Positions 36,881 to 57,793 are shown, numbered from the stretch's first letter. The stretch: DNA of 64,000 bases from an uncultured Pseudomonadota bacterium (GCA_963836045.1 CAWIIC010000005.1:821646-885645), one strand, 5' to 3'. Notes: generated by a model not told the origin, from the letters alone. Numbers and translations are program-made.

Positions 36881-36890
36881 GGCAACTCCG

Positions 36891-39148: not shown

Positions 39149-39321
39149 TTGCCTTTCGAAAGTATCGATACGTGATATGGACCCTGGTAATCAACACAGC
39201 CTCATCGATCCATAGGACATTCGGCTCTTGAGTCGGGCGAGTCCTACAAGACGTCTAGCGGAGATAGACTCAGGGTGAGACCCTGGAACCGGCTAGCACC
39301 TCCTTCATGAAGGGAATAGGT

Positions 39322-40926: not shown

Positions 40927-41937
40927 ATGAAGTTCGGGACAGTGTTGGAAGCCATATCGTTTCATCGGGACGTAGCGGATGCGGGAGAGCTGCTCACGGT
41001 CTCGGCCGTATTCAGAGGCTCCTTGCATCTCGAGCTGCCCCGTGGACGTGTGGGTACCCTGACGACCGCCGTCCGAAATGGGCCGTTGACCGTGCGCGTC
41101 CGTTCTGCTCTATGGGATGATTCGTGGATCGGGCGGCGGGTTGCGCTGTCCTATCTCCGCGACACCGGATTCGTTGCACCCTTCCAGAAGAATCTCGCCG
41201 TTCTTGACTCGGGTGACTATGTCGTGGATATGAGCCGGGCGCTGCCCTGGGAGCCCGACCGCACATCGGTAGATTGCCACCCTACGGTGTTGAAGGTGCA
41301 GTCGAAGCAGCTTCGTGAGCTTGCCGGTCGGTCCGCAATCCTGGCAGACGATCGGCTGGGCCACGCCCTCCGCGAGTCACGTGCCCTGGCACTCAAGGCC
41401 ATGCGGTCTCACGATCTCGACGGCCTGACCGTTAACGCTGGTCGGCTTCTCGGTCTAGGACCCGGACTCACTCCGGCGGGCGATGACTGGCTGTGCGGCA
41501 TGACCATCGGCTTGTATCACCTCACTCTCGGTGATCACAACGTTCGCCGGTTAGCAAGTGACCTTCTGGCCTCCTTCTCTCAAGCGGTCCGCGTGGCGAA
41601 TACCACTCCGCTATCGCAAACGCTGCTCGCCTATGCGGTGGAGGGCGTGGGCGATGCCGGGCTCACAACCCTGGCCCGGGGCCTCGGAATGCCCTGCCCT
41701 GAGCTGAAACGGAGGGCGTGCGAGCTGGACGGCGTCGGCCATACCTCTGGATGTGACATGATGCTTGGAGTGGCCGACGCCGCCAGTTTCGTGGCACAGC
41801 ACTGTGCCGGCCACGAATCGGTGATACGTGGGAGCTGCCGTCTCCCGGGCCGGCACTACCGACATCCATGTAGGGAGGGGAGTTGGAGCGGCGCATTGAG
41901 GTTCGGCGGAACTTGTACTATGACTCCGTGCGCCTGA
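40927..41937 (+). CDS. DUF2877 protein (YlbF/AllH-like subunit of the oxamate carbamoyltransferase family)
   Basis: GLGPGLTPAGDDWLCG and GHTSG motifs typical of DUF2877. The 3' end overlaps the fdrA-like start by 55 nt. Confidence 0.75.
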   Translation: MKFGTVLEAISFHRDVADAGELLTVSAVFRGSLHLELPRGRVGTLTTAVRNGPLTVRVRSALWDDSWIGRRVALSYLRDTGFVAPFQKNLAVLDSGDYVVDMSRALPWEPDRTSVDCHPTVLKVQSKQLRELAGRSAILADDRLGHALRESRALALKAMRSHDLDGLTVNAGRLLGLGPGLTPAGDDWLCGMTIGLYHLTLGDHNVRRLASDLLASFSQAVRVANTTPLSQTLLAYAVEGVGDAGLTTLARGLGMPCPELKRRACELDGVGHTSGCDMMLGVADAASFVAQHCAGHESVIRGSCRLPGRHYRHPCREGSWSGALRFGGTCTMTPCA

Positions 41938-43355
41938 TGCGCGTGTCGGAAGCGTTGCAGCGAATGCCCGGCGTCGTGTCGGCATCTACGGTGATGGGCA
42001 CCGAGATGAATATCGGCCTTCTGGCTCGCGACGGTTTCTCCATCCAGGACGTTACCCGCGCCGGGCCATCTGATCTCGTCATTGCAGTCGCCGCCGAGGA
42101 TTTGGCGTCGCTCGAGCGGGCAATGGAGGGAATCGAGGCCGCGTTGGCTGCTCGCGCCACCCCGCACGTCGTGGACCGTGATCCGCCGGCGTGGAGCCAG
42201 GCGGTATTCCGAGAAGCGCCGGACAGCAACGTTGCCGTCATAGCCGTCCCGGGCGAGCACGCCGCGCTCGAGGCCTGGACGGCTCTCCGTGCTGGTCGTC
42301 ACGCCTTCATTTTCAGCGACAACATGCCCGTCTCCCAGGAGGTAGCGCTCAAGCGATTTGCTGCCCAACAGAACCTGCTCGTGATGGGGCCGGACTGCGG
42401 GACGGCAATCCTGGGCGGAGTCGGACTTGGATTCGCGAATCGGGTGCGCCGAGGCACGATTGGTCTGGTCGGCGCGTCGGGAACGGGCCTTCAGCACGTG
42501 TCGTGCCTGCTGGATGCATGGGGCGGAGGAATCGCGGCCGCGATCGGCACGGGCAGCCGCGACCTGTCGGCCGACGTTGGTGGCATCATGACGATGGCGG
42601 CGATCGATCTCTTGGCGCGAGATGACCGCGTTGACCGCATTGGCCTGATTTCCAAGCCTGGGGACGCGCCCACAACCAGGCGGGTTCTAGATCACCTCGC
42701 CCAGTCGGGGAAACCGGCAGTGGCTTGCTTGCTTGGGGCTGAAGTCGGTGCGACGCAACTTGAGATTGCCCCCACCCTGGCTCGAGCGGCTGCCGCGCTG
42801 CTGGGTCTGCCCCCGGATAGCGATATGACCCCATGCTCCAACTCAAGTCCCGACGGGGGCCAGCCGGGGCCAAATGCCTTCTCCAAGGCGGTCTCGCTAA
42901 CCGGTGTGTTTTGCGGTGGAACGCTCTGCCAGGAAGCTCTGAGAATTTGCTCAGAGGTGGCGCCCCAAGCAGTGTTGCGCTTCGTCGACGCTGGGGCGGA
43001 TGAGTACACGCGCGGCCGCGCCCATCCCATGATCGATCCACGCATTCGCTCCCGGTTGATCGTCGAGGCTGCCGCCTCCACCGATGTGCTGCTCGTGGAC
43101 GTCGTGCTCGGAGATCTGGCTCATCGCGACCCGGCCGGGGTTCTCGTTCCGGCTGTTGACGAGGCTGGCCGGCTAGCTGAGGCACGAGGTACGACGCTTC
43201 ACGCGGTCTCCGTTCTCGTCGGAACTCACTCCGACCCCCAGAGTCTCGATGCACAGCGAGGGACACTTCAGTCCGCCGGGATCGCGGTATTCGAATCGAA
43301 CGAACAAGCGGCCACGCATGCCGCTTTGTTGGCCCTGGGCGTTGCTGCTCCATGA
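41883..43355 (+). CDS. fdrA: FdrA/AllF-like acyl-CoA-synthetase-fold protein (succinyl-CoA synthetase alpha-like)
   Basis: N-terminus IEVRRNLYYDSVRLMRVS (compare E. coli FdrA ...KKGCFQDSVSLM) and MGPDCGTA. TTG start is preceded by GGGAGGGGAG. Confidence 0.8.
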   Translation: MERRIEVRRNLYYDSVRLMRVSEALQRMPGVVSASTVMGTEMNIGLLARDGFSIQDVTRAGPSDLVIAVAAEDLASLERAMEGIEAALAARATPHVVDRDPPAWSQAVFREAPDSNVAVIAVPGEHAALEAWTALRAGRHAFIFSDNMPVSQEVALKRFAAQQNLLVMGPDCGTAILGGVGLGFANRVRRGTIGLVGASGTGLQHVSCLLDAWGGGIAAAIGTGSRDLSADVGGIMTMAAIDLLARDDRVDRIGLISKPGDAPTTRRVLDHLAQSGKPAVACLLGAEVGATQLEIAPTLARAAAALLGLPPDSDMTPCSNSSPDGGQPGPNAFSKAVSLTGVFCGGTLCQEALRICSEVAPQAVLRFVDAGADEYTRGRAHPMIDPRIRSRLIVEAAASTDVLLVDVVLGDLAHRDPAGVLVPAVDEAGRLAEARGTTLHAVSVLVGTHSDPQSLDAQRGTLQSAGIAVFESNEQAATHAALLALGVAAP

Positions 43356-44758
43356 ATCTCATGGAGGAAGTGAACCCCGTTATCGTCGGGCCTGATATCT
43401 TTGCTCAGGCGATCTCGGACCAGGCCGCAAAGCACTACGATGTCGAATGGCGCCCGCCCCTGGCATCGGAGGCGCTCCTGGCTGTCTACTCAAATGACGC
43501 GGCGTTCTCCCGAATGACAGCCGGCAACCGGGAGGCCCTCTCCCGGCTCCTGAGTGCTCGGTGCCGGGTCGTCGACGTGGCGCTCGCTGCCGACGTGATT
43601 CCGGGCATGCAGAAGGGGGTCCTCCTGCATGCTGGGCCGCCACTCGACTGGGCCCATGCCGGCGGGCCTATGCGGGGAGCCCTGATCGGGGCTGTTGTAT
43701 ACGAGGGCTGGGCCGGAAGTCACGAGTCGGCCGAGCACGAGCTGGCCAGGGGGAACATCGAGCTGTCTCCATGTCACGCTCACGATGCGGTCGGTCCAAT
43801 GGCCGGCGTGATCTCGCCGTCGATGCCTGTCTTCGTGGTTGCAAACCAGGCATTTGACGCCGTCGCCTACGCCACCTTGAATGAGGGCTTGGGCAGAGTC
43901 CTGCGCTACGGAGCGAACGACGAGAGCGTCCTCGAACGCCTTCAATGGCTTGCCGCGGTGGCCGGTCCGTTGCTTGGTGCCGCGATCCGCCGGGCCGGCG
44001 GTATAGATCTGACGTCTCTGATTGCCCAGGCCCTGCAGATGGGAGATGAGCTGCACAACCGAAACAAGGCCGCGACGTCGCTCTTTGTCCGCGAGATAGC
44101 TCCGCACCTGTATGCCGCCGCTGCCGGCGGAGAGATTGCCCACGACCCCGTCCCCCTCTTTCAATATCTCGCCGGCACCGATGTGTTCTTTCTCAACCTC
44201 GCCATGGCCGCCTGCAAGGCCGCCCTGATGCCCACCATGGACGTTCCGGGGTCCACGATGGTGACTGCCATGGCCCGCAACGGCACGGACTTCGGAATCT
44301 GGATGTCAGGCACCGGGCGGCGATGGTTTACCTCACCCGCGGCCGAGGTTGACGCCTTGTTCTTCCCGGGTTACGGCTCCGAGGACGCCAGTCCCGATCT
44401 CGGCGACAGTGCGATCACCGAGACGGCTGGCTTGGGCGGCTTCGCCTTGGCCGCCGCCCCCGCGATCGTCCAGTTCATCGGCGGCTCGGTGGATCTCGGC
44501 AGGGCTGTCACGGAAGAGATGTATCAGATCAGTCTCGGCGAGCACTCGATGTATCAGATGCCCGCGATGGATTTTCGCGGCACTCCCGTGGGCATAGACG
44601 CGGTTGCCGTAAGTCGGTCCGGCGTCGCGCCGGTTCTGGATACCGGCGTGGCCCACCGGGAGGCCGGCATAGGCCAGATTGGCGCCGGGATCGTGCGCGT
44701 TCCGCTGGAGCCTTTTGCCGACGCGGTCGTGGCCTTGGTAACCACAATCCAACACTGA
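43352..44758 (+). CDS. DUF1116 protein (YlbE/AllG-like)
   Basis: Sits directly after fdrA with ATGA coupling. Size and position match YlbE-type partners. The family call rests on context and general resemblance. Confidence 0.65.
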   Translation: MNLMEEVNPVIVGPDIFAQAISDQAAKHYDVEWRPPLASEALLAVYSNDAAFSRMTAGNREALSRLLSARCRVVDVALAADVIPGMQKGVLLHAGPPLDWAHAGGPMRGALIGAVVYEGWAGSHESAEHELARGNIELSPCHAHDAVGPMAGVISPSMPVFVVANQAFDAVAYATLNEGLGRVLRYGANDESVLERLQWLAAVAGPLLGAAIRRAGGIDLTSLIAQALQMGDELHNRNKAATSLFVREIAPHLYAAAAGGEIAHDPVPLFQYLAGTDVFFLNLAMAACKAALMPTMDVPGSTMVTAMARNGTDFGIWMSGTGRRWFTSPAAEVDALFFPGYGSEDASPDLGDSAITETAGLGGFALAAAPAIVQFIGGSVDLGRAVTEEMYQISLGEHSMYQMPAMDFRGTPVGIDAVAVSRSGVAPVLDTGVAHREAGIGQIGAGIVRVPLEPFADAVVALVTTIQH

Positions 44759-44790
44759 CAGCGACCAACACGCATACCAAACCCGGCTAT
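44749..44790 (+). repeat. degenerate heptamer array overlapping the DUF1116 stop (AACACTG ACAGCGA CCAACAC GCATACC AAACCCG)
   Basis: ACTGACAGCGACCAACA matches ACTGACAACGACCACCA at 31543 in 15 of 17 positions. Confidence 0.45.
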
Positions 44791-44907
44791 TGCGAGGCTT
44801 CAAGCTCACGGTCCGTAGGCCAGGATCAAGGGCCTAGAGGAGATAGAACGGTTGCCAGGATCTGCGATACTTCACAAGTTGGCTGAGGCGCTTGAGGTTA
44901 CCTCCCA

Positions 44908-45126
44908 ATGAAATCGAGGGCTTTGAGGCAGATCGCCATTGCAGTGATTGCTTTGTCAGTTACGGTAGCCGGTCTCGGAGCGCAACAACTAGTGTCGGGC
45001 TGGTGCGGCACAGACGGCATTGGCTCGCATGGAGTCTGCCAACGACAAGACAATCAGTTCAAGGCATATTACCAAAAGCATGCCACTATCTATGTGTCCA
45101 CCTTCCCACCCAAGGCCAATCGTTAG
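44908..45126 (+). CDS. small secreted two-cysteine protein, hypothetical
   Basis: Signal peptide MKSRALRQIAIAVIALSVTVAGLGAQQ. GAGG lies about 12 nt upstream. The region looks locally lower in GC. No family recognised. Confidence 0.4.
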   Translation: MKSRALRQIAIAVIALSVTVAGLGAQQLVSGWCGTDGIGSHGVCQRQDNQFKAYYQKHATIYVSTFPPKANR

Positions 45127-45321
45127 GAGCAGTTAACTAGCGTCCATGTCGACTGTGCATCGAATGTCGGACTCAATCCCGCTTACTACCACCTTAGATC
45201 GTGCTTCCTCCGACATTTTTGGGCGCTCCAAGTTTCACCCATGCTCAAAACGATGTACGATGTCTCTAGCAGGCGGGTAAACAACCATCGCCCGGCTCCA
45301 ATTCTTGGTGCAGGACGCTGA

Positions 45322-46122
45322 ATGGTAGAGGCGGCTGTTCGGTCGCAGGCTGGAACTGTACCGGCTATCCGGGTCGATGGCGTCACCATGCGCTATGGGA
45401 CCAGAGGGCAGCAGGTTCTCGCTCTGTCGGATGTATCGCTTGACATCGCCTCCGGGGAGTTCCTATCCCTTCTCGGGCCGTCCGGCTGCGGGAAGAGCAC
45501 CCTGCTGCGGTTGATCGCCGATCTCCTGCAGCCGACCGCGGGACGGGTGCAGGTTAAGGGCAAGTCTGCCTCACGGTCCCGGCGCGATCGAGACTACGGG
45601 ATGGTGTTTCAGTCGCCCGTTCTGTACGATTGGAGAACAGTCGGCAAGAACGTCCAGCTCCCCCTTGAGATCACCAAGCTGCCTAGACGTGAGCGCGAGG
45701 AGCGCACCAAGCGCCTGCTGAAGCTCGTCGGACTTCAGGACTTCGAGCACAAGTATCCCTGGCAGCTATCCGGGGGCATGCAGCAGCGTGTCTCGATAGC
45801 TCGTGCGCTCTCCTTCCAGCCCGGCATCCTGCTGATGGATGAGCCGTTCGGCGCCCTCGACGAGATGACCCGCGATCGCCTCAACCTCGAGCTGCTTAAT
45901 GTCTGGAGCGAGACGGGAACGACGATAGTGTTTGTGACGCACAGCATCCCCGAGGCGGTCTTCCTGTCGGACCGAATCGTCGTCATGACGCCCCGCCCGG
46001 GCCGGATTCACACAATCGTCGACGTCGACCTCGAACGTCCGCGATCCTCCCAAACCCGCGAGGATTCCAAGTTCTTCAACTTGATCAGCTCTGTGCGCGG
46101 CCAGCTGGCGGAACACCTATGA
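45322..46122 (+). CDS. ABC transporter ATP-binding protein, NitT/TauT (SsuB/TauB-like) family
   Basis: Walker A GPSGCGKST, signature LSGGMQQRV, Walker B LLMDEPFGALD. Confidence 0.9.
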   Translation: MVEAAVRSQAGTVPAIRVDGVTMRYGTRGQQVLALSDVSLDIASGEFLSLLGPSGCGKSTLLRLIADLLQPTAGRVQVKGKSASRSRRDRDYGMVFQSPVLYDWRTVGKNVQLPLEITKLPRREREERTKRLLKLVGLQDFEHKYPWQLSGGMQQRVSIARALSFQPGILLMDEPFGALDEMTRDRLNLELLNVWSETGTTIVFVTHSIPEAVFLSDRIVVMTPRPGRIHTIVDVDLERPRSSQTREDSKFFNLISSVRGQLAEHL

Positions 46123-47063
46123 CCCAGGCGGTCGTCCAGTCGGGCCCATCCGCCATACTTGACGAGCCGGCGAATAGTGCCGCCTCCCGACGATCGCGAC
46201 TCCGCGACGCCGGCGCCATCGCTGGGGTATTCGCGGTGATAATCGGCCTCTGGTACCTCGGAGCGATCTACTACAACTGGGGCTCCCTGGCGCTCCACTA
46301 CTCGGACCTCGGCCAGACCTCCGTGTGGCAGCACATGAGCTTTATCGATAAGATTAAGGCCACCCTCAACGAACCGCTGCCCACCATGCCGGCACCCCAT
46401 CAGGTCCTAGCCGACCTCTGGTCCCGCTTAGCTGAGCCGCCAAGCGCTAACGGCAACCTCTGGGTCGATTTTGCGACGACCGGTACCGAGGCGGTTCTCG
46501 GATTCCTGCTGGGTGCGGCCGTGGCGATCGCCCTCGCGTTCGCCTTCGTTCGCAGCCGTATCCTCGAGCTTTCGCTGTTCCCATATGTAGTCATGTCGCA
46601 AACCGTTCCGATCGTCGCCCTCGTTCCGGCGTTGGTGGTAGCGCTTGGCTTGGGCCTGCGAGCGAAAGTCTTGGTCGCCGCCTACCTCGCCTTTTACCCG
46701 ATAACGGTTAGCGCGGTGAAGGGCTTGCGGTCGGTCGACCCCCTGGCCGAGGAGCTGATGCGCTCCTATGCCGCGAGCTCGCGTCAGGTCTTCCTCAAGC
46801 TCCGCCTGCCGTCGGCGCTCCCCTACATATTCACCGGCCTGAAGATCGGCATCACCGCCAGCGTGATCGGGGCGATCATCTCCGAGCTGCCCGTTGGATC
46901 GGAGTTCGGGTTTGGGCGGGCCATCATTGACGCCAGCCAGTACGGCCTGAACATCCTGTTGTGGTCGACGATCGTCGCCTCAGGCCTTCTCGGCCTGGTG
47001 CTGTATGGCTGTGTCGTGCTGTTCGAGCGCGTGGTCGTGCGCGCCCGGCTCGAGGACGCGTAG
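46119..47063 (+). CDS. ABC transporter permease (NitT/TauT family, BPD_transp_1)
   Basis: Multi-TM protein with an EAA-like loop (SVDPLAEELMRSYAAS...KLRLPSALPYIFTGLK). ATGA-coupled to the ATPase gene. Confidence 0.85.
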   Translation: MTQAVVQSGPSAILDEPANSAASRRSRLRDAGAIAGVFAVIIGLWYLGAIYYNWGSLALHYSDLGQTSVWQHMSFIDKIKATLNEPLPTMPAPHQVLADLWSRLAEPPSANGNLWVDFATTGTEAVLGFLLGAAVAIALAFAFVRSRILELSLFPYVVMSQTVPIVALVPALVVALGLGLRAKVLVAAYLAFYPITVSAVKGLRSVDPLAEELMRSYAASSRQVFLKLRLPSALPYIFTGLKIGITASVIGAIISELPVGSEFGFGRAIIDASQYGLNILLWSTIVASGLLGLVLYGCVVLFERVVVRARLEDA

Positions 47064-47066
47064 CTG

Positions 47067-47966
47067 GTGGCCATGGAAAGCTCGCTCACTCCTCACTCGG
47101 ATGAGGAAGTGGTCGGCGCCGAGCTGGCCGGCGGCGAGGGACAGCTGGTCACCGAGCACCTCGTGCTCGACGCTGTCGAGCCGGGCAAGTGGAATCCGCG
47201 CATAGCCGTACAGCGGCTCCTCCCTCCGGCCATCGTTTTCATTCTGATGCTCGTCGGCTGGGAGTATTTGTCTCCTCGTGTAGTCCCTACCTCTCAGCTC
47301 CCGGTCCCGTCTCAGATCTGGCAGACGTTCCAATCCGTGCACAGTATTCTTCTCAGTTACGCGTGGTTTACGTTCTGGAATGAGGCTTTGAGGGGATTCC
47401 TGATCGGATCGGCGGCCGGCTTTCTCCTCGCCGTGTTGGCCTGGCGTTTTGCGATCGTCGGTCGTGGCCTCGTGCCCTACGCCGTAATCAGCAACTCAGT
47501 GCCGATCGTGGCGATGGCCCCCATCGCCGTGGTCCTGTTTGGGTTTGACTGGCAGTCAAAGGCGGTGATCTGCGCCGTGATGTGCGTTTTCCCGATGCTG
47601 GTCAACACCTATCGCGGATTGGTTTCGGTGGACCCGCTCTCGCGGGACCTGTTGTCCTCTTACGGAGCCGGTGAGTGGACCGCCTTCTGGAAGCTGCGCC
47701 TTCCCGCCTCCCTGCCGTTTGTGTTTAATGGCCTGAAGATCAACACCACGCTGGCCATGATCGGAGCTATCATCGGCGAGTTCTTCGGCAGTCCACCCGA
47801 GGGCCTTGGCCTCTATATCTACAACCAGTCCGGAATCAACAACTACGCCGAGGTGTGGGCCGGCGTATTCGTCGCCTGTGCCGTCGGCATCGTGTTCTAC
47901 GGAGTCGTCCTGGGCATCGAACGCAGGTTTACGTCCTGGCACATTTCATATCGAGCCGGCCGCTAG
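47067..47966 (+). CDS. second ABC transporter permease (paralogue of the preceding gene)
   Basis: SVDPLSRDLLSSYGAG...KLRLPASLPFVFNGLK parallels the upstream permease. Confidence 0.85.
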   Translation: MAMESSLTPHSDEEVVGAELAGGEGQLVTEHLVLDAVEPGKWNPRIAVQRLLPPAIVFILMLVGWEYLSPRVVPTSQLPVPSQIWQTFQSVHSILLSYAWFTFWNEALRGFLIGSAAGFLLAVLAWRFAIVGRGLVPYAVISNSVPIVAMAPIAVVLFGFDWQSKAVICAVMCVFPMLVNTYRGLVSVDPLSRDLLSSYGAGEWTAFWKLRLPASLPFVFNGLKINTTLAMIGAIIGEFFGSPPEGLGLYIYNQSGINNYAEVWAGVFVACAVGIVFYGVVLGIERRFTSWHISYRAGR

Positions 47967-48087
47967 CCGGGTGGGAACACAACAGGAACGGGAGAGCACG
48001 AAAGGAGGATTGAAGAGCGGGATTCGAATGGAAGCGAGGTCGCCCCTTTTGAGATTCAAATCTAAGTCAGTAGGAAAGAGGACACAT

Positions 48088-49137
48088 ATGTCACGAATTA
48101 TGCGTGCCTTGAGCGTGGTCGCAATTATGAGCATCGCACTCATCGGTGGGACGGCGCTGGCCAATCCAGCGCACAAATCCATGATCAACATCAAGCTTCA
48201 GCTGAAGTGGGTGGCGCAGTCCCAGTTTGCCGGCTATTTCGTCGCGTACAACAAGGGCTATTACAAAAAGGCCGGTCTCAACGTCACCATCCTCAACGGC
48301 GGACCACAAGTCACACCCGAGACGGTAGTCGAATCCGGAGCCGCTCAGTTTGGCATCGACTGGCTCCCGTCTCTGTTGCACGAGAGGGACAGCGGACGGC
48401 CCATAGTCAATGTTGCTCAGATATACCAAGCAACCGGCATGCGGATGATCACGTTCAAGAGCTCCGGCATCAACAGCATAAAGAAGTTCAAGGGACACAC
48501 GGTCGGCGTGTGGCCGGCAGGAAACCAGTACCAGTTCTTTGCCCTGATGCACAAGCTCGGATACAAATGCTCCGTAAACACTTTCAGCTGCGCCTCGTCG
48601 ACGGGCATCAAAGTCGTTCAGGAGGGTTTCACCATGGACCCATTCCTGAACCATACGCTCCAGGTATCTCAAGCCATGACGTACAACGAGATGGGTGTCG
48701 TGACCGAGCCGCCTCCATCAGGACATGGCGTCCCGCAAAAGAATCTGAACATTTTCGACTACAACAAACTCGGCGTCAGCATGTTGGAAGATGGCATCTT
48801 TGCCCAGCCTAGCTGGCTAAAGTCGCATAAGGCTGCCGCGATCGCCTTCCTGAAGGCATCGATCAAGGGCTGGGACTTCGTGGTCAAGAACCCGACTGAG
48901 GCCGGCAAGATCACCTACAAGTACATCCCAGCGGGAACTGCTACTCAGGGCCACATGATCTTTCAGGCCAAGCAGGTCGCCAAGCTGATCAAGGCTAATC
49001 TGAAGGGCCACAAGATAGGCTGGATGAACCCAGCGTCATATGCGCGCACCTGGAAGGAGGCCAAGCTCGACGGCGTGATCTCGAAAAAGCCAAGCGGCGC
49101 CTACAACCAGAGCTACTGGAAAGCAGCCACCAAGTAA
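48088..49137 (+). CDS. periplasmic/extracytoplasmic substrate-binding protein, NMT1/THI5-like (NitT/TauT family)
   Basis: Signal peptide MSRIMRALSVVAIMSIALIGGTALA, then KLQLKWVAQSQFAGYFVAYNKGYYKKAGLNVT. GGAAAGAGGA lies upstream of ATG 48088. The ORF-track start at 47806 lies inside the permease gene. Confidence 0.8.
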   Translation: MSRIMRALSVVAIMSIALIGGTALANPAHKSMINIKLQLKWVAQSQFAGYFVAYNKGYYKKAGLNVTILNGGPQVTPETVVESGAAQFGIDWLPSLLHERDSGRPIVNVAQIYQATGMRMITFKSSGINSIKKFKGHTVGVWPAGNQYQFFALMHKLGYKCSVNTFSCASSTGIKVVQEGFTMDPFLNHTLQVSQAMTYNEMGVVTEPPPSGHGVPQKNLNIFDYNKLGVSMLEDGIFAQPSWLKSHKAAAIAFLKASIKGWDFVVKNPTEAGKITYKYIPAGTATQGHMIFQAKQVAKLIKANLKGHKIGWMNPASYARTWKEAKLDGVISKKPSGAYNQSYWKAATK

Positions 49138-49211
49138 AATCAAGGTCGCACGAAAGTCACCCCGGGGAGAAATCCTCGGGGTGGTCCACTCCGGCCCGGC
49201 ATGAGCTGGCG

Positions 49212-49257
49212 AACAAACTGAAAGCCGACGACTGACAACGAAAAACTGACAACTGAG
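49212..49257 (+). repeat. heptamer tandem array AACAAAC TGAAAGC CGACGAC TGACAAC GAAAAAC TGACAAC TGAG(ATG)
   Basis: Direct reading of the sequence. TGA triplets fall in all three frames, and the array abuts the ATG of the FAD-subunit gene. Confidence 0.7.
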
Positions 49258-50145: not shown

Positions 50146-50618
50146 CGCCGCTCCGAACGATCTCGGTTACCGTCAATGGGAATATGTACACCGCGGAAGT
50201 TCCGGTGAGACTGCTGCTGTCCGATTTCCTCCGCGGCAACCTAGGCCTAACCGGGACGCACGTCGGCTGCGAGCACGGTGTTTGCGGGTGCTGCACCGTT
50301 CTGCTTGAAAATCGGCCCGTTCGCTCCTGCCTGATGTTTGCTGTTCAGGCGTCAGGGCATGACATCGCCACGGTTGAGGGCCTGAGGGCTGAAGGCGAGG
50401 CCTTGCACCCCTTGCAGGAGGCCTTCCACCAGGAGCACGCCCTCCAGTGCGGCTTCTGCACCTCGGGGATATTGATGACCCTCGTCCCCTTTCTCCAGGA
50501 CAACCCGCGCCCGAGCCCGGAGCAGATCCGTGAAGCGCTCTCTGGTAACCTTTGTCGCTGCACCGGCTACGTCAATATCGTGAAAGCCGTGCAGCGCGCC
50601 ACTGGACAGGTCCCATGA
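50142..50618 (+). CDS. [2Fe-2S]-binding small (CoxS-like) subunit
   Basis: CEHGVCGCCTV and QCGFCTSG...CRCTGY cysteine clusters. Confidence 0.92.
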   Translation: MTPLRTISVTVNGNMYTAEVPVRLLLSDFLRGNLGLTGTHVGCEHGVCGCCTVLLENRPVRSCLMFAVQASGHDIATVEGLRAEGEALHPLQEAFHQEHALQCGFCTSGILMTLVPFLQDNPRPSPEQIREALSGNLCRCTGYVNIVKAVQRATGQVP

Positions 50619-53011
50619 CCACCCGATGGTTTGGCCAACCTGTGACCCGCAACGAGGACCATCGCTTGCTGACCGGGCACGGTCGCTACGTCGACGACAT
50701 TCCGATGCCCGAGGCCTTGCACGCTGCGATCCTGCGATCTCCGATTGCTCACGGCCGGATCACCCGGATCGACGTGACGGCGGCCCGTGAGTTGGCAGGC
50801 GTCCACGCCGTCTGGACCGCGGAAGACCTCGGCGATGTGTTGCGGCCGTCGCCCATGGTCGTGCCCCACGACGTTCTTACCCAGCCTCGAACCCAGTACC
50901 CTCTGGCCCGTGAGTTCGTGAATTATGTCGGCGAGCCCGTCGCGTTCGTCATCGCTGACGATCGTTACATCGCGGAAGACGCCTGCGACCTGATCGAAGT
51001 CGAGTACGACCAGCTACCGGCTGTCGTCGATCTCGAGAGCGCCACGGCCGAGGGAGGTCCGCTGGTGCATCATGACGTGCCTGGCAACGTAGCCGCACAC
51101 CTTCTTCAGACGGTCGGAGACGTCAATGTCGCGTTCAGCCGGGCCGCACATGTTTTCGAGGAACGGTTGTTTGTCGAGCGCGGAGCCGGCCAGCCCATGG
51201 AATGCCGCGCCGTCTGCGCCTCCTACGACCTGACCGAGGGCGTCCTGACCGTGTACGACACGACCCAGGCCCCGCTCTCGATTCGCAATGGCCTGGCGGT
51301 CCTTTTCCATCTGCCGGAGAGCCAGGTCCGCGTGGTAGCACCCGACGTCGGCGGCGCCTTCGGCACCAAAATCATGATGTTCTACTCGGAGGAGGTTCTT
51401 GTCCCTCTGGCTGCGCTCCGGCTGAAACGGCCCGTCCGCTGGGCCGAGGATCGCCGCGAGCACCTGATCGCCTCCAACCACGAGCGCGGTCAGCTCCACT
51501 GGTCCGCCATAGCGGTCGACGACGACGGCGTGATCCTCGGCGTCAAGGACAGATTCCTGCACGACACCGGTGCGTACACCCCCTATGGGATCATCGTTCC
51601 CATCATCACTTCGACGCAGCTCCCGGGCCCCTACAAGGTGCCCAACTACTTCAGCGACGCGAGTGTGATCTACACCAACAAAGTGCCCGTCACCCCTTAT
51701 CGGGGCGCTGGTCGTCCCCAGGGCTGCTTCGTAATGGAGCGGCTGATCGACCGCGTAGCGGCGGAGCTGAGCCTCGACCGCGCCGTCGTCCGCCGGCGGA
51801 ACTTCATCCAGCCCGATGAGTTCCCGTACGACGTTGGCCTGACGTTTCAGGATGGCCGTCCGACCAAGTACGATAGCGGGAACTATCCCGAGGCGCTGGA
51901 AAGGGTGCTTGAGGCTATAGGGTGGGATGCGTTCCAGGACCGGCAGGCATCCGCTCGCCACGAGGGCAAGTACCTCGGTATCGGAGTAGGATGCTACGTC
52001 GAAGGAACCGGAATCGGCCCGTACGAGGGAGCTCATGTTCGCGTCGACGGCACGGCCCGGCGGGTGATCGTTGCTACCTGCGTGGGCACCCAGGGACAGA
52101 GCCACCAGACGTCTTTCGCCCAGATCGTCGCCGATGAGCTGGGGTGCCTTCCCAGTGAAGTCGACATAACAACAGGCGATAGCCGGTCGATGAACTGGGG
52201 ATCCGGCACGTACGCCAGCCGCTCGGCCGTGGTGACCGGCAACGCGATCCACGCCTCGTCCCTGGCCGTCGCAAACAAAGCCAGAGCACTGGCTTCCGAA
52301 ATGTTCGAGGCGGACCCGGAGGATATCGAGCTGGCCGGTGGCCGCGTCGGCGTGAAGGGCTCTCCCCAAAGCAGCGTCTCTCTCTGGGACATCGCGATAG
52401 CCGCGAACCCGATCCGCTACGCCTATGGCGATCAGGCCAAAGAGGCGATGAGCATGCTGAGACCCCGTGATGGCGCGGCCCTAGAGGAGGGAGCCGATCC
52501 CGGCCTGGAAGCCCGGAAGTACTTCGCTCCTGAACGCGCCACCTGGGCGAGCGGCATCCACGCCGCCATCATCGAGATCGACGCCGAAACCGGCGTCCCG
52601 ACTATTGAGAAGTACGTCGCCGTTCACGATTGCGGGCGCGTGATCAATCCGACAGTCGTCGAGGGGCAGGTGCATGGCGGCGTGGCTCAGGGCATTGGCG
52701 GATCGTTCTACGAGCGTATGGTGTACGATCCGGACGGCCAGCCCCTCTCCAGCACGTTCATGGATTATCTGATCCCAACGGCCATGGAAGTGCCGGATAT
52801 CGAGACTATTCACGTCGAGACGCCGTCGACGCTCAATCCCCTGGGGATCAAGGGGGCTGGTGAGGCCGGTGTGATCCCGGTTCCGGCGCTGATGGCGTCG
52901 GCCGTGGAAAATGCTCTGCAGCCCTTCGGTGTTCATGTCACCCGTATGCCCCTGAGTCCCAGCGATATTCGCGAGACGATCCGCGCCGGCAGAAACCTGG
53001 ACGCGGCCTGA
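50615..53011 (+). CDS. molybdopterin-binding large subunit, form-II CoxL-like (not a bona fide CO dehydrogenase signature)
   Basis: N-terminus GQPVTRNEDHRLLTGHGRYVDDI. The active-site loop is VTPYRGAGRPQG (AYRGAGR type) rather than the AYxCSFR of true CODH. ATG 50615 overlaps the small-subunit stop. Confidence 0.88.
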   Translation: MTTRWFGQPVTRNEDHRLLTGHGRYVDDIPMPEALHAAILRSPIAHGRITRIDVTAARELAGVHAVWTAEDLGDVLRPSPMVVPHDVLTQPRTQYPLAREFVNYVGEPVAFVIADDRYIAEDACDLIEVEYDQLPAVVDLESATAEGGPLVHHDVPGNVAAHLLQTVGDVNVAFSRAAHVFEERLFVERGAGQPMECRAVCASYDLTEGVLTVYDTTQAPLSIRNGLAVLFHLPESQVRVVAPDVGGAFGTKIMMFYSEEVLVPLAALRLKRPVRWAEDRREHLIASNHERGQLHWSAIAVDDDGVILGVKDRFLHDTGAYTPYGIIVPIITSTQLPGPYKVPNYFSDASVIYTNKVPVTPYRGAGRPQGCFVMERLIDRVAAELSLDRAVVRRRNFIQPDEFPYDVGLTFQDGRPTKYDSGNYPEALERVLEAIGWDAFQDRQASARHEGKYLGIGVGCYVEGTGIGPYEGAHVRVDGTARRVIVATCVGTQGQSHQTSFAQIVADELGCLPSEVDITTGDSRSMNWGSGTYASRSAVVTGNAIHASSLAVANKARALASEMFEADPEDIELAGGRVGVKGSPQSSVSLWDIAIAANPIRYAYGDQAKEAMSMLRPRDGAALEEGADPGLEARKYFAPERATWASGIHAAIIEIDAETGVPTIEKYVAVHDCGRVINPTVVEGQVHGGVAQGIGGSFYERMVYDPDGQPLSSTFMDYLIPTAMEVPDIETIHVETPSTLNPLGIKGAGEAGVIPVPALMASAVENALQPFGVHVTRMPLSPSDIRETIRAGRNLDAA

Positions 53012-55230
53012 TGCCGCGCTACCGGGTCGGCATCGACACCGGCGGTACGTTTACGGACGTAGTGGCCGTCGACCATGACAGTGGCCTGCTGTCCGCCACC
53101 AAGACTCCCAGTAGCCCGGACGACCCCTCACGGTCACTTGCAGCCGGCCTCGACAAGATACTCCATCAAGTCGACGCCAGCCGGCCCGACCTGGAATCGC
53201 TGATTCATGGCACCACGGTTGCTACCAATGCTCTGCTGGAGGAGCGCTTCTCTTCGCTGGCCCTGATCACGACCACCGGGTTCCGTAACATCCTCGAGAT
53301 TGCCCGTCAGAGTGTTCCGAGCGGCTACGGCAACTCCTATTTCTGGGTCAAGCCCCAGCGCATCGTGCCCCTCGAGCTGGTCTTCGAGGTCTCGGAGCGT
53401 TTGAATTTTCGTGGCGAGGTAATGAGGCCGCTCGACGAGGACAGCATTCGGGTTATCGCCGCCGAGCTGCGGGCCCGCGGCGTAACTTCCGCCGCGGTCT
53501 GCCTGATCCACGCCTACGCCAATCCTGAACACGAGCAACGGGTGGCTCGCATTTTGGCGGCTGCGTATCCCGAGCTGGTGGTCTCGCTGTCATCCGATGT
53601 GCTGCCCGAATACCGTGAGTACGAGCGCACTATGACGACGTGCGTGGACGCCTACGTGAAGCCCGTAATGAAGCGGTACATCGATCGCGCTGTCGAAGGG
53701 CTGGGAATAGAGAGCAGGGCAAGCGCCGGGAACGGAAGCCCCAACGGCCACACGCCCTTCCTAATCATGCAATCCAACGGAGGCATGCTTTCGGCCGGCG
53801 AGGTGGCTAGTCAGCCGATTACGACGCTTCTATCGGGGCCCGCCGCCGGCGCCTTGGGAGCAGGCTACCTCGCCGGACTGGCGGGATACGATCGCGTGCT
53901 GACCGTCGACGCGGGAGGCACCTCGACCGACATTTGTCTGGTCGATGGGGGCGTTCCGCACGTGACGACCGAGGGACGAGTCGGGAGGTTCCCCGTGAAG
54001 GTGCCCATGGTCGACATCACTACCATAGGTACGGGAGGCGGCTCGATCGTTTGGATAGATCCGGGCGGTGGGCTACGGGTTGGCCCCAAGAGCGCCGGCG
54101 CCGATCCCGGACCGATCTGCTACTGTCGCGGTGGAGTCGAGCCCACCCTGACCGATGCTAACGTGGCCCTCGGTAGACTGCCCCCCTTCCTGCTCGGAGG
54201 CGAGATGCAGCTCGATGCCGAAGCGGCCTCGGATGGGTTGGGCCGCCTCGCCCGGCGTCTCGGGCTGACCGCTGAGAAGCTGGCCGCCGGCGCTGTCGAG
54301 ATCGCCGATTGGAACCAGGTCCATGCGATAAGGCAGGTCACCGTGAAAAAGGGCCTCGACCCTCGAAGCTATACCATGGTTGCGTTCGGTGGTTCGGGTC
54401 CCTTGCAAGCTCCGAACGTTGCGGGTCTATTAGGGATAGATACCGTGCTGATTCCGCCGAATCCTGGAAATGTGTCTGCCTTTGGACTCCTTGCCGTGGA
54501 TTTCAAGGCCGACTTCGTGGTGACCTCGGTTCACCGAGAAGATCGCGTGGGCCTAGAGGCGCTGAATCAAGGCTTTTCGCGGTTGGAGCAGGAGGCGGTG
54601 GCCGAGCTCGAAGCCGAGGGAGTGCCTTCCGATCGTCGTCGCATGATACGTTCGGCCGACCTCCGTTACTTAGGAGAAGCGTATGAAGTTCGTGTAGATG
54701 CGCCGGAAGGCGAGGTCACCCAGGCGGTGGTCAAGGCCCTGACCGGCAAGTTCCACTCAGAGCATGAACGCCTCTATGGGTACTCATATAGGGGCGAGCA
54801 GTTGTGCGAGATCGTTAACCTGCGAGTCTCAGCCATCGGCGTGGTCGATAGACCAAAGCTTCAATCCACCGCCCCGCCGGCAAACCCGCTATCACATAAA
54901 CCCGCTCCGGCGTCGCCAGACCGTATTCCGGGATCCCACGGACGTGTGCCCGGATCCCACCCTGGGGACCCTTCACACGGCGACACCGAGCACGGACCAG
55001 GACCGACTGCGGTCGCCAAAGGAGCCTCCCCGCAGTCGCACCGCCAGGTGCACCTTGGGCAGTCGGGTTTTGGCAACATTCCGGTGTACGCCCGCAACGA
55101 GCTGGCTTCAGGGCAAGTCCTGCGGGGCCCGGCCGTGGTCGAGGAGTACGGCTCGACATCAATCGTTCCTCCCGGCTGGTCACTCGACGTGGATGGCTGG
55201 CGCAACCTCATCCTCCGAAACTCGCCTTGA
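53011..55230 (+). CDS. hydantoinase/oxoprolinase A-family ATPase (HyuA-like) with a Pro/Ser/His/Gly-rich insertion
   Basis: MPRYRVGIDTGGTFTDVV, VDAGGTSTD, and the C-terminal GPAVVEEYGSTSIVPPGW. Confidence 0.88.
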   Translation: MPRYRVGIDTGGTFTDVVAVDHDSGLLSATKTPSSPDDPSRSLAAGLDKILHQVDASRPDLESLIHGTTVATNALLEERFSSLALITTTGFRNILEIARQSVPSGYGNSYFWVKPQRIVPLELVFEVSERLNFRGEVMRPLDEDSIRVIAAELRARGVTSAAVCLIHAYANPEHEQRVARILAAAYPELVVSLSSDVLPEYREYERTMTTCVDAYVKPVMKRYIDRAVEGLGIESRASAGNGSPNGHTPFLIMQSNGGMLSAGEVASQPITTLLSGPAAGALGAGYLAGLAGYDRVLTVDAGGTSTDICLVDGGVPHVTTEGRVGRFPVKVPMVDITTIGTGGGSIVWIDPGGGLRVGPKSAGADPGPICYCRGGVEPTLTDANVALGRLPPFLLGGEMQLDAEAASDGLGRLARRLGLTAEKLAAGAVEIADWNQVHAIRQVTVKKGLDPRSYTMVAFGGSGPLQAPNVAGLLGIDTVLIPPNPGNVSAFGLLAVDFKADFVVTSVHREDRVGLEALNQGFSRLEQEAVAELEAEGVPSDRRRMIRSADLRYLGEAYEVRVDAPEGEVTQAVVKALTGKFHSEHERLYGYSYRGEQLCEIVNLRVSAIGVVDRPKLQSTAPPANPLSHKPAPASPDRIPGSHGRVPGSHPGDPSHGDTEHGPGPTAVAKGASPQSHRQVHLGQSGFGNIPVYARNELASGQVLRGPAVVEEYGSTSIVPPGWSLDVDGWRNLILRNSP

Positions 55231-55346
55231 GTTAGCGATCATGATCAAATCTCTGGTGGCTCTGCGGCGATCGCGGACGCCTCCCATGGTCCGGCCTTCC
55301 CGATGGCCTGGCGAGCTGACGAGTCCACAAAATCGGTGACCAAGAC

Positions 55347-57203
55347 ATGACAACAATAGAAACCGCGCGGACGACAACCACTGCAACGGGGCCTGTCGAT
55401 CCGATCGTCCTACAGATAGTCGAGGGCACATTGGCGTCGATCGAGGCCGAGGTCGAGGCAGCTATCGAACGCACCGCGAGGTCGCCGATGATCCGCGACC
55501 AGCACGATTACCGGGCCGGCATCCATGATCGCTTCGCCCGGAAGCTCACCGGGCGTTCCTACAGCGCCATGGTCAATCCCATCATCCGGGACTTCCCCCT
55601 GGAGTCCATGCAGCCGGGCGATGTCTATTTCCACAACGACGTTTACCTGTCCGAGGGCGGTATCGGTCACCTCCCCGACCTCTGCTCAACCGTTCCGGTG
55701 TTTTTCGACGGAGAGGTGGTCGGCTTCGTCCAGGCCTTCGGTCATCACGACGACATAGGAGGCATGGTTCCCGGCAGCATGCCGGCCAAGGCGACGAGCA
55801 TCTTCCAGGAAGGGCTGATGATCCCACCGATCAAGCTCTACAGCGCCGGCGCTCGCAACGAGGCGGCCTACGCGATCATCTTTCGTAACACCAGGCTGCC
55901 CCACAGTCTCCAGGGTGACATCGATGGCGAGATTGCCGCCTGCCACATGGGTGCCGAGCGCCTTACCGAGCTCTTCTCTCGCTATGGACGGGAGGTGGTG
56001 GAGGCGTGCTTCGAAGCAATCCTAGAGCGCTGCGCCGATAACTTCCGCAACGAGATACTCCCGCGCATTCCAAACGGCGAGTATGCCTGGGAAGACTACA
56101 TCGAACACGACGGCGTCGATCCTCCGCGTCTCCACCCACTCAAGATGACCATGACCAAGACCGAGGATAAGGTCACCCTCGACCTACGGGGCAGTGCTCC
56201 GCAAACGAGGGGCCCGATCAATTGGCCGGGCAACTATTGCGAGGGGAGGTTCCTGAAGAAGTGGGTAGCAGTTGCCCTGCGTAACCTCGCCGCCACACCC
56301 GAGCGGATGGCCGAGCTGGACATCAACGAAGGTGTGTGTGACGTCATCGACGTGATCTTCCCCGACGAAGATACCATTGTTTCGCCTCGCTTTCCCGCTG
56401 CCACCAATGCACGGTCGTTCACCATATTGCGGTTGATTGGTGTGTTTATGGGAGTCCTCGCCCAGGCCGTCGGCGGCAAGGTGCCCGCCGATCAGGAAAC
56501 CATCCGCTACTGGGGTCTTCACGGTTTTGACGAGTCCGACGGCACGTTCTTCTTGCTCCGTGAGGTGCTGGGAGGCGGCTCCGGTGGCCGCTACTACGCC
56601 GACGGCAGCGACTGCATCCACATAGTCCCCGACTCCAAAAACCTGCCCGCCGAGTTCGCCGAAACCCGCTTCCCCATTGTCGTCGAGGCTCTGGCCCTAG
56701 CGCAGGATTCGGGAGGCCCCGGCTTCAGGCGAGGAGGCCTCGGCTATCAAAAGGACGTACGCGCCTTGCAGGACGTGGAGTTCATATCGACCGCCGATCG
56801 GTCGATCCTTAGCTGCTACGGGGTGAACGGAGGATCGGCGGGACTGCCCTATCAAGCAATCGTGAACCCCGGAACGCCCGCAGAAGTGCATCTTGGGGGT
56901 ATGGTCGACAACTACAAGCTCAAGGCCGGGGACGTCATCCGCTTGCGAACGACCGGCGGTGGCGGCTGGGGGGATCCCCTCGGCCGAGAAACCAATCGGG
57001 TTCTTCTCGACGTGGTCCAGGGTAAGGTCTCGCCGGAGTCCGCTCGCCGCGATTACGGCGTGGTCCTTTCCGAGACGGACGGCCGGAGCCCGGCAGTCGA
57101 TGAAGAGGCCAGCGTAGCCCTGAGAAATGAGATTAGATCTCGTCGAAAAGCTCTCGAGCTGATCGACCGGGGTCCCGGCTACGACTCTCTCCGTAGCAGC
57201 TGA
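55347..57203 (+). CDS. hydantoinase B/oxoprolinase family protein (HyuB-like)
   Basis: DPIVLQIVEGTLASIEAEVE...RSPMIRDQHDYRAGI and GGGGWGDPL near the C-terminus. Confidence 0.88.
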   Translation: MTTIETARTTTTATGPVDPIVLQIVEGTLASIEAEVEAAIERTARSPMIRDQHDYRAGIHDRFARKLTGRSYSAMVNPIIRDFPLESMQPGDVYFHNDVYLSEGGIGHLPDLCSTVPVFFDGEVVGFVQAFGHHDDIGGMVPGSMPAKATSIFQEGLMIPPIKLYSAGARNEAAYAIIFRNTRLPHSLQGDIDGEIAACHMGAERLTELFSRYGREVVEACFEAILERCADNFRNEILPRIPNGEYAWEDYIEHDGVDPPRLHPLKMTMTKTEDKVTLDLRGSAPQTRGPINWPGNYCEGRFLKKWVAVALRNLAATPERMAELDINEGVCDVIDVIFPDEDTIVSPRFPAATNARSFTILRLIGVFMGVLAQAVGGKVPADQETIRYWGLHGFDESDGTFFLLREVLGGGSGGRYYADGSDCIHIVPDSKNLPAEFAETRFPIVVEALALAQDSGGPGFRRGGLGYQKDVRALQDVEFISTADRSILSCYGVNGGSAGLPYQAIVNPGTPAEVHLGGMVDNYKLKAGDVIRLRTTGGGGWGDPLGRETNRVLLDVVQGKVSPESARRDYGVVLSETDGRSPAVDEEASVALRNEIRSRRKALELIDRGPGYDSLRSS

Positions 57204-57290
57204 CGCGTGAGCTGATCGTGCATGACCCAGCCGCCGGGATAGCCCGCCCAACGAATCCGACACTGTCGTCGAGCGCCTTTTGGAGGTGCC

Positions 57291-57659
57291 ATGGCCCCGC
57301 ACATTGGAAACGTCGTCATCGATTGCGCCAACCCCCAGAATTTAGCTCAATTCTGGCAAGAAGTTCTGAGTTACAACCGGCGAATCTCGGAGGCTGACTT
57401 CGTAGTCCTCGAGGATCCGTCAGGTAAAGGCATTACCCTCTTTCTCAATCAGGTGCCTGAACCGAAGATTGGCAAGAACCGCGTTCACGTGGACCTGACG
57501 GTCGAAGATCACGCGCAAGAGGTTCAGCGCTTGAAGGAACTAGGCGCATCACAGATTCAGACGTTTGAGTACGACAACGTGATCTGGAGCGTCATGGCCG
57601 ACCCCGAGGGCAATGAATTCTGCTGCGCCGAGCACAGAAAGCCGTCCACGGTAAGTTAG
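57291..57659 (+). CDS. VOC/glyoxalase-like domain protein (single domain)
   Basis: GNVVIDCANPQNLAQFWQEVL...RVHVDL...DPEGNEFC is typical of the Glyoxalase_6/VOC family. Confidence 0.7.
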   Translation: MAPHIGNVVIDCANPQNLAQFWQEVLSYNRRISEADFVVLEDPSGKGITLFLNQVPEPKIGKNRVHVDLTVEDHAQEVQRLKELGASQIQTFEYDNVIWSVMADPEGNEFCCAEHRKPSTVS

Positions 57660-57730
57660 CGCTCAGAAACCGCTTATGGCTTCCGACGATAGAAGGGACT
57701 AAAACCCCAGAGATCGGCTCCCGACGCCGG

Positions 57731-57793
57731 TACTGTCTACCGTTTACCGTCTACTGTTGACCGTCAACTGACAACTGTCTACCGACTACCTCT
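57731..57793 (+). repeat. nine-unit heptamer tandem array TACTGTC TACCGTT TACCGTC TACTGTT GACCGTC AACTGAC AACTGTC TACCGAC TACCTCT
   Basis: Direct reading of the sequence. Lies in the convergent gap between the VOC gene and the ABC-2 permease gene. Confidence 0.75.

Follow-up and report, generated by a model that had tools for sequence, protein, structure and literature searches.

A three-module gene cluster in an uncultured Pseudomonadota bacterium, possibly for the catabolism of a pyrimidine-type nucleobase

In Rhodococcus and Nocardia, the oxidative pyrimidine pathway runs through a uracil/thymine dehydrogenase, a barbiturase and a ureidomalonase; ureidomalonate, which is ring-opened barbiturate, is the one-carbon homologue of oxalurate. 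The reductive pyrimidine pathway uses dihydropyrimidinase, beta-ureidopropionase, beta-alanine aminotransferase and malonate-semialdehyde dehydrogenase. Molybdenum hydroxylases turn N-heterocycles into lactams, and enzymes of the HyuAB family hydrolyse stable lactams in an ATP-driven reaction. The barbiturase family has been treated elsewhere (PMC4051656, PMC3758960). In Escherichia coli, the oxamic transcarbamylase AllFGH (encoded by fdrA-ylbE-ylbF), which is accompanied by the carbamate kinase AllK, phosphorolyses an acylurea, and oxalurate is the only proven AllFGH substrate (Kim & Kim 2024, PMC11326118). A metagenomic note places allFGHK beside triuret/biuret genes in nitrifiers (PMC12625717). 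Homologues of AllFGH and HyuAB are found together with an ATP-binding cassette (ABC) importer and a molybdenum hydroxylase at positions 40927-57659 of a 64,000-nucleotide stretch from an uncultured Pseudomonadota bacterium (GCA_963836045.1, CAWIIC010000005.1:821646-885645), which was analysed as a whole and is termed the window below; all positions refer to it. This island is made up of three separable modules: an AllH-AllF-AllG trio, an NMT1-type ABC importer, and a CoxMSL-like hydroxylase with HyuAB. We tentatively interpret it as a locus for the uptake and breakdown of a pyrimidine-type nucleobase, with uracil and/or thymine as the most likely substrates. All of the protein families are known, but their combination is apparently undescribed, and no description of this cluster, or of the broader association of AllFGH with xanthine dehydrogenase (XDH)-family enzymes and ring openers, was found in the literature searched.

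Gene families were assigned by scanning open reading frames (ORFs) with Pfam and NCBIfam hidden Markov models, covering every large ORF in the window as well as several shorter ones (80-150 aa). The trio occupies 40927-44758 as adjacent, overlapping genes with the family content of a three-subunit AllFGH-type enzyme: an AllH-like subunit (DUF2877, 40927-41937; PF11392 AllH, E=9e-20), an AllF/FdrA-like subunit (41883-43355; PF00549; 375 bits against the FdrA model NF004760, under its cut-off of 433) and an AllG-like subunit (DUF1116, 43352-44758; PF06545, E=2e-89). Because the FdrA model aligns from residue 7, AllF likely starts at the TTG at 41883, and in that case probably overlaps AllH by 55 nt. 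The E. coli enzyme has the same three families, with AllF and AllG likewise translationally coupled, and the presumed chemistry is alike, namely ureide phosphorolysis to carbamoyl phosphate. However, the island proteins are only 32-45% identical to it, their order is H-F-G and not F-G-H, and their neighbours are a molybdenum hydroxylase, HyuAB and a pyrimidine-type importer in place of carbamate kinase or allantoin genes. The substrate of the island trio is probably not allantoin-derived oxalurate.

E. coli K-12 carries two such trios (L086 and L087; related loci are given L numbers throughout), fdrA-ylbE-ylbF-ybcF and the uncharacterised yahE-yahF-yahG-yahI-yahJ, the latter in the H-F-G order of the window and accompanied by genes for a carbamate kinase-like protein and an amidohydrolase. 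AllH is 32% identical to YlbF and 24% to YahE, AllF 36% to both YahF and FdrA, and AllG 45% to YlbE and 41% to YahG; in a rough neighbour-joining tree, unresolved at depth, the AllG clade of the window falls loosely near YlbE. The yah cluster resembles the island in gene order and also pairs the trio with a cyclic-amide-type hydrolase, as do L003, L006 and L173, but identities are 24-41%, molybdenum hydroxylase and HyuAB genes are lacking, and the cluster is itself functionally uncharacterised. The closest relatives of AllG are found in L001 (80% identity), L002 (63%) and L003, L173 and L006 (61%), and in each of the last three a dihydropyrimidinase gene lies downstream. The earlier note on this DNA had held that the island is not simply the known all regulon, and gene content agrees: allantoinase, allantoate amidohydrolase, ureidoglycolate dehydrogenase and carbamate kinase are all missing from the window ORFs scanned, as are the linked allB/allC/allD/allE and allK of E. 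coli. Neither did these scans return any other allantoin-pathway gene, a uricase, an amidase, a malonamidase or a regulator.

The hydroxylase comprises a CoxM-like flavin adenine dinucleotide (FAD) subunit (49258-50145; PF00941, PF03450), a CoxS-like subunit with two [2Fe-2S] clusters (50142-50618; PF01799, PF00111) and a CoxL-like molybdopterin subunit (50615-53011; PF01315, PF02738, PF20256). It has all the hallmarks of the XDH family: a large subunit with MoCoBD_1/2 and hammerhead domains, a FAD_binding_5 subunit, a double 2Fe-2S subunit and the catalytic Glu, which is kept within a motif (GAGEAG) conserved in the clade. The three-subunit architecture and the Glu are shared with N-heterocycle hydroxylases and with both forms of the large subunit of carbon monoxide (CO) dehydrogenase, and the nearest solved structures to CoxL, Kdh (6-hydroxypseudooxynicotine dehydrogenase, 7dqx) and Qor (quinoline 2-oxidoreductase, 1t3q), are of enzymes that hydroxylate N-heterocycles or ketones. 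The window CoxL is placed in a clade distinct from these two because of its phmmer E-value to them of about 1e-147.

Form I CoxL has the loop AYXCSFR and the usual gene order coxM-coxS-coxL, whereas form II has AYRGAGR and the order coxS-coxL-coxM; the role of the form II type is regarded as unclear, and isolates with form II only often show no CO uptake (PMC13203968). The active-site region of the window CoxL reads VTPYRGAGRPQG, with a PYRGAGR loop that lacks the Cu-binding Cys found in form I. The label 'form II' given in the earlier note thus fits in part: the YRGAGR-type loop is common to both and nearly matches AYRGAGR, but the gene order is the M-S-L of form I. The accessory genes coxD/E/F/G are all absent from the window. 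The NCBIfam model NF040766 (1082 bits, cut-off 950) would nevertheless name this protein 'aerobic carbon-monoxide dehydrogenase large subunit' despite the missing Cys loop, and the whole clade of CoxL proteins linked to HyuAB is at risk of being miscounted as CO oxidisers. Two CoxL clades occur in the surveyed loci. Group A, to which the window belongs, is 49-70% identical to the window CoxL in genome-derived loci, carries the loop PYRG[AC]GRP, is consistently linked to HyuAB and is hosted by Thermomicrobium, Rokubacteria, Dormibacteraeota, Actinobacteria and Chloroflexota. Group B is classical XDH-like, with 27-33% identity and an RGFG loop, and occurs mostly in presumed anaerobic lineages.

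The hydroxylase genes run into HyuA (ATP-dependent hydantoinase/oxoprolinase A, 53011-55230; PF05378, PF01968, PF19278), followed by HyuB (55347-57203; PF02538, E=6e-140). The domain set is complete, with Hydant_A_N, Hydantoinase_A and Hydant_A_C in one subunit and Hydantoinase_B in the other, and this two-subunit architecture and domain content are the same as in the lactamases of the family (N-methylhydantoinase, caprolactamase CapAB, 5-oxoprolinase). The nearest structures to HyuB are N-methylhydantoinase (7hk5) and caprolactamase (6yra). However, the proteins form a separate subfamily, whose usual neighbour is the CoxMSL-like enzyme and whose HyuB is 53-90% identical across phyla. All scores fall well short of the equivalog cut-offs, at 511 and 199 bits against 1000 for caprolactamase (511 being that of HyuA with the alpha-subunit model) and 260 and 113 bits against 1500 for acetophenone carboxylase.

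The importer lies between the trio and the hydroxylase and is complete in content: an ABC ATPase (45322-46122; PF00005, E=1e-34), two BPD_transp_1 permeases (46119-47063 and 47067-47966; PF00528) and an NMT1/THI5-family periplasmic binding protein with a signal peptide (48088-49137; PF09084, E=4.5e-38). The ATPase is 99% identical to that of L001, 78% to that of L002 and 71% to that of L006. The earlier note had described the island as thirteen co-directional genes with short gaps or overlaps, and twelve of these are borne out by the scans, in the families and positions it had given and all on the plus strand. The thirteenth, described as a small secreted peptide, corresponds to a 72-aa ORF at 44908-45126, which is not counted as a gene because it has no family match and its segment is missing from the closest relative, L001. 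The overlaps are real, at 4 or 1 nt for AllF/AllG, ABC ATPase/permease, CoxM/S/L and CoxL/HyuA, but not every gap is short, with 563 bp between AllG and the ATPase, 121 bp between permease and binding protein, 120 bp between binding protein and CoxM, 116 bp between HyuA and HyuB and 87 bp between HyuB and the last gene. That gene encodes a VOC/Glyoxalase_6 protein (57291-57659; PF18029) and is co-directional but not a conserved member: a tblastn homologue was found in 0 of 170 related loci, and the gene 3' of HyuB in L088 encodes a 111-aa protein unrelated to VOC.

The island is not a single thirteen-gene operon: its three modules also occur apart. The order ABC ATPase-permease-permease-binding protein-CoxMSL-HyuA(B) is kept in four close relatives (L001, L002, L091 and L172), but in L172 a LysR regulator takes the place of AllHFG upstream (LysR-ABC-CoxMSL-HyuAB). 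In one Chloroflexota genome, a CoxMSL-HyuAB-MFS-CN_hydrolase cluster (L088) lies 1 Mb from AllHFG with a dihydropyrimidinase (L003). The trio also differs from its surroundings in conservation: at the nucleotide level the flanks 36677-40333 and 45248-55100 are 92-95% identical between the window and L001, but within 40340-45250 the AllHFG block and the sequence upstream of it are only about 70% identical (measured across 40475-44715). The trio therefore has the appearance of a swapped cassette, and it looks to have been exchanged by recombination between lineages. In L002 (19895-21401) and L091 (4883-10004), CoxS, CoxL and HyuA were called as short fragments, which may reflect frameshift decay or assembly errors.

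Recurrence of the modules was followed in two neighbourhood surveys, one with an AllG alignment as query against one genome per species (80 loci from many phyla) and one a metagenome scan for HyuB (80 loci); loci that have 5 kb or more of sequence to either side are termed well-flanked (40 AllG and 16 HyuB loci). Crude ORF calls in high-GC actinobacterial loci gave antisense artefact clusters (u9, u15, u20; cluster 6), and tblastn counts were used in their place. By clustering and tblastn, XDH-family genes lie near AllG in 45 of 80 loci; among the 40 well-flanked ones the count is 31. A ring-opening amidohydrolase is present in 25 of these 40 (PF04199 cyclase in 21, the AtzD/barbiturase family in 3, dihydropyrimidinase in 2), and the window's own CoxL clade in 10, from Thermomicrobium, Rokubacteria and Actinobacteria, near-full-length and at 49-61% identity. 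The Dormibacteraeota locus L089 adds a further phylum, with a window-type CoxL at 54% identity and HyuAB about 2 kb from AllF-AllG-PhzF-cyclase-CoxMSL on the opposite strand. Seen from HyuB, group A CoxMSL adjoins HyuAB in 13 of the 16 well-flanked loci. Genes for AllFG stand beside HyuAB in the metagenome loci L108, L112, L121, L126, L129, L130 and L142, and also in L163, where a carbamate kinase and a dihydropyrimidinase accompany them. At least eight loci combine AllFG, HyuAB and CoxL, in varying orders and orientations; the clearest case is L129, with CoxM-S-L, HyuA, HyuB, AllF and AllG on one strand and an NCS2 permease adjacent.

The gene-neighbourhood check proposed in the earlier note thus came out positive, both in the arrangement that recurs in the four close relatives and in the co-occurrence of modules across phyla. 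Co-location of the modules is far above chance adjacency, and from these surveys we infer that they are functionally coupled. Recurrent accessory genes at AllG loci include NCS2 permeases, PucR regulators, carbamate kinase, family III coenzyme A (CoA)-transferase, amidase/CN-hydrolase and a thiolase/DUF35 pair. AtzD/TrzD-family amidohydrolases are found directly beside AllHFG-CoxMSL (L019 at 598-1689, L022, L060) or HyuAB (L149, L155). In the actinobacterial clusters L004 (11486-12712), L021 and L071, a DUF6986 gene (PF22484, E=2e-144) directly follows AllG, and its product may supply the hydrolase that those clusters lack, or act as a partner in them.

Context narrows the likely substrate towards a pyrimidine. 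The nearest solved structures to the binding protein are 4nmy, ThiY and THI5; ThiY binds a pyrimidine precursor, and the protein is a member of the ThiY/THI5 family of pyrimidine binders. Transporter homologues sit in two clusters of the reductive pyrimidine type. L173 (1-11035), which shares both the transporter family and the AllG clade of the window, reads AllF-AllG-dihydropyrimidinase-omega-aminotransferase-(methyl)malonate-semialdehyde dehydrogenase-ABC-NMT1. L174 (Gaiellaceae, 6218-16301) holds the classical set, with an M20 N-carbamoyl-amino-acid/beta-alanine amidohydrolase, dihydropyrimidinase, (methyl)malonate-semialdehyde dehydrogenase and omega-aminotransferase. AllF-AllG of L173 takes the position of the M20 amidohydrolase of L174, which suggests that enzymes of the AllFGH type can stand in for beta-ureidopropionase. 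Four of seven cluster-linked NCS2 permeases match uracil permease or RutG models best, although none reaches the cut-off, and both actinobacterial permeases tested, from the group A CoxMSL loci L004 and L085, are among these four. In two Halanaerobiales clusters (L079, about 3668-7259; L083, about 6210-7033), a four-subunit Na+-pumping methylmalonyl-CoA-type decarboxylase (mmdA-like carboxyltransferase at 885 bits, OAD_gamma, biotin carrier and OAD_beta) is inserted between AllH and AllF; these clusters also hold a cyclase and CoxMSL, and in L083 a carbamate kinase, with a family III CoA-transferase downstream. This context points to a malonyl or methylmalonyl skeleton, as would arise from uracil or thymine via barbiturate. 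Two further clues are that, L001 and L002 apart, the AllG proteins most similar to that of the window come from loci with a dihydropyrimidinase, and that ureidomalonate is so near a homologue of oxalurate.

The route that we infer, in its substrate, the order of its steps and each of its reactions, would begin with import of uracil or thymine by the NMT1-type ABC system. The CoxMSL-like Mo/FAD/FeS enzyme would then hydroxylate the ring carbon next to a nitrogen, converting uracil at C6 into barbiturate, so that the N1-C6 bond becomes a new cyclic amide. HyuAB would hydrolyse this amide with ATP, opening the ring to the linear ureide ureidomalonate, and AllH-AllF-AllG would split the ureide with phosphate into carbamoyl phosphate and malonamate. 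In this way nitrogen and the carbamoyl group would be salvaged: the carbamoyl phosphate could enter the synthesis of arginine or pyrimidines, or could yield ATP where carbamate kinase is present, as it is in many related loci. The proposed order from import through hydroxylation and ring opening to carbamoyl phosphorolysis, which the earlier note had put forward, fits the neighbourhood data. It is also the order of the oxidative pyrimidine pathway, from uracil hydroxylation through ring opening to ureide cleavage, and AtzD/barbiturase-family genes occur in the related clusters L019, L022, L060, L149 and L155. However, barbiturase and ureidomalonase are missing from the window, which would employ ATP-dependent HyuAB and phosphorolytic AllHFG instead of hydrolysis. 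Compared with the reductive pathway, the window has a molybdenum hydroxylase and HyuAB in place of the upper steps, without dihydropyrimidinase, aminotransferase or semialdehyde dehydrogenase. A reductive uric acid pathway described in a preprint uses different genes and is unrelated.

Several observations weigh against this interpretation and bring in its rivals. Carbamate kinase, malonamidase and a regulator are all missing from the window ORFs scanned, and the context of the window's AllG clade ties it to N-carbamoyl-beta-alanine and not to an acylurea. It is possible, if unlikely, that the same scheme serves a purine, another N-heterocycle or a cyclic ureide (xanthine, urate, hydantoin, parabanate, or a triazine such as 5-azauracil or cyanuric acid), with AllHFG cleaving oxalurate, biuret or an aryl-ureide. 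PucR-family regulators in at least 10 AllG loci suggest purines, the other three of the seven NCS2 permeases lean to the xanthine permease PbuX, and AtzD-family neighbours pass the NCBIfam cut-off for cyanuric acid hydrolase. Oxalurate as the substrate of the only assayed AllFGH and the triuret/biuret genes beside allFGHK in nitrifiers (PMC12625717) point the same way. Moreover, in several loci HyuAB is accompanied by a cyclase or AtzD-type hydrolase, which would suit a two-ring compound; because of this pairing, HyuAB is not simply 'the' ring opener, the steps can be assigned in more than one way, and the idea that HyuAB is a plain replacement of the cyclase-type hydrolase is rejected. Against another substrate stand the absence of uricase, allantoinase and ureidoglycolate dehydrogenase from the ORFs scanned, the pyrimidine and beta-alanine-type clusters in which the transporter family and the nearest AllG relatives reside, and the methylmalonyl-CoA-type decarboxylase, which fits malonate better than oxalate or glycine. 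Less probable again is that the modules are neighbours only, with AllHFG and the importer belonging to a reductive route for pyrimidines or hydantoins that is completed by genes elsewhere, and CoxMSL-HyuAB forming a self-contained system that oxidises and opens an unrelated lactam-forming heterocycle. Such a separation would account for the 563-bp gap after AllG, for the 3 kb of opposite-strand genes found between AllG and the transporter in L002, and for the divergence of AllHFG from L001 between flanks of 92-95% identity. It would also account for CoxMSL-HyuAB often being without AllFG within 10 kb (L088, L095, L097, L172), among which L088 is a separate unit that has an MFS transporter and a CN-hydrolase of its own and L172 keeps the importer without AllHFG, and for AllHFG without CoxMSL-HyuAB in L003 and L173. 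However, Dormibacteraeota and several unrelated lineages from metagenomes independently show AllFG next to this HyuAB/CoxL clade, in varied arrangements, and the association of AllFG with XDH-family enzymes in the well-flanked loci far exceeds chance adjacency.

Two further explanations carry much less weight. The classical all regulon itself is rejected on the gene content of the ORFs scanned, and it is very improbable that the island is part of the allantoin/oxalurate system with its missing genes elsewhere in the genome. All three subunit families are present and the clade falls loosely near YlbE, but AllG is only 45% identical to YlbE and 41% to the uncharacterised paralogue YahG, the gene order is that of yahEFG and not allFGH, the all genes and carbamate kinase were not among the ORFs scanned, and the conserved neighbours are a hydroxylase, a lactamase and pyrimidine genes. 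Scarcely credible is an aerobic CO dehydrogenase with unrelated neighbours. The NF040766 score above cut-off and the M-S-L order speak for it; the tight tie of the clade to HyuAB, the missing coxD/E/F/G, the unclear role of form II-type enzymes and the frequent lack of CO uptake in form-II-only isolates (PMC13203968) speak against it, and it is rejected on the PYRGAGR loop without Cys.

The interpretation as a pyrimidine locus can be extended to a wider proposal, which we regard as doubtful. Group A CoxMSL would be the gene-orphan uracil/thymine dehydrogenase and, with HyuAB as an ATP-dependent barbiturate opener and AllHFG as a general ureide phosphorylase, would form an undescribed phosphorolytic oxidative pyrimidine pathway, which would be widely distributed among bacteria of soils and seas. 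Anaerobes would take this pathway further, to an energy-conserving pyrimidine fermentation, by means of carbamate kinase and a Na+-pumping malonyl-CoA decarboxylase. If true, the AllFGH family would reach beyond a single E. coli allantoin enzyme to a general harvest of ureido groups as carbamoyl phosphate, pyrimidine catabolism included. It would also give a testable function to a large clade of form-II-like 'CoxL' proteins that soil and ocean surveys routinely count or annotate as CO dehydrogenases and whose role is acknowledged to be unclear (PMC13203968). Candidate genes are thereby offered for the hydroxylation step of the oxidative pyrimidine pathway, in a proposed new variant that depends on ATP and phosphate, and cultured carriers for direct tests exist in Thermomicrobium (sp. 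CFH 73360), Actinomadura (A. rubrobrunea), Nonomuraea (N. endophytica DSM 45385) and Ornithinimicrobium (O. pekingense DSM 21552).

Upstream of the trio, a promoter-like element read from the sequence (TTGTGC-N17-TATAGT, 40644-40672, plus strand) precedes a 30-codon ORF and the AllHFG unit, and its hexamers and spacing are kept in L001 within a region otherwise about 70% identical. It went uncalled in a consensus scan because its -35 hexamer matches at only 3 of 6 positions. The ORF (40704-40796, plus strand) would encode the small hydrophobic peptide VPEVVTSFWPSMFILLGFAYLLLPTARIKH, ends 130 nt upstream of AllH and was found only in the window and L001. Between the two, 14 codon changes are synonymous and 3 non-synonymous, 16 of the 19 nucleotide differences fall at third positions, and a GGGGGA ribosome-binding site upstream is kept; this pattern is a clear signature of purifying selection, as judged from the two sequences. 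Two other ORFs nearby (40306-40662 and 40646-40918) were rejected as spurious and have no family hits. Promoter and terminator consensus sites in 39000-58500 were no more frequent than in shuffled sequence, and the scan is therefore unable to define transcription units. Rfam searches, run at gathering score on the whole window and at E<=1 on 40250-45400, returned neither a riboswitch nor any other RNA element, and no tRNA genes were found in the window.

By best hits, the genome is like that of an uncultured member of the Chloroflexota. Both flanks are of a housekeeping nature: upstream lie NadE, serC/serA-like genes, an ECF sigma/anti-sigma pair and the dcw cluster for cell division, and downstream an ABC-2 exporter and rpoN. 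The dcw cluster is complete (13459-29290, minus strand: mraZ, rsmH, a penicillin-binding protein, Mur ligases, mraY, ftsW, murG, murC, murB, ftsA and ftsZ), and its presence places the island in the core chromosome, with no obvious mobile element. Two large ORFs have no Pfam match (7899-10469, minus strand, 856 aa; 61914-63302, plus strand, 462 aa). Upstream of the island, at 39307-40281 on the plus strand, lies a gene for a two-domain Glyoxalase/VOC protein that is 95% identical in L001, and a 64% homologue of this protein adjoins HyuB in the metagenome locus L096.

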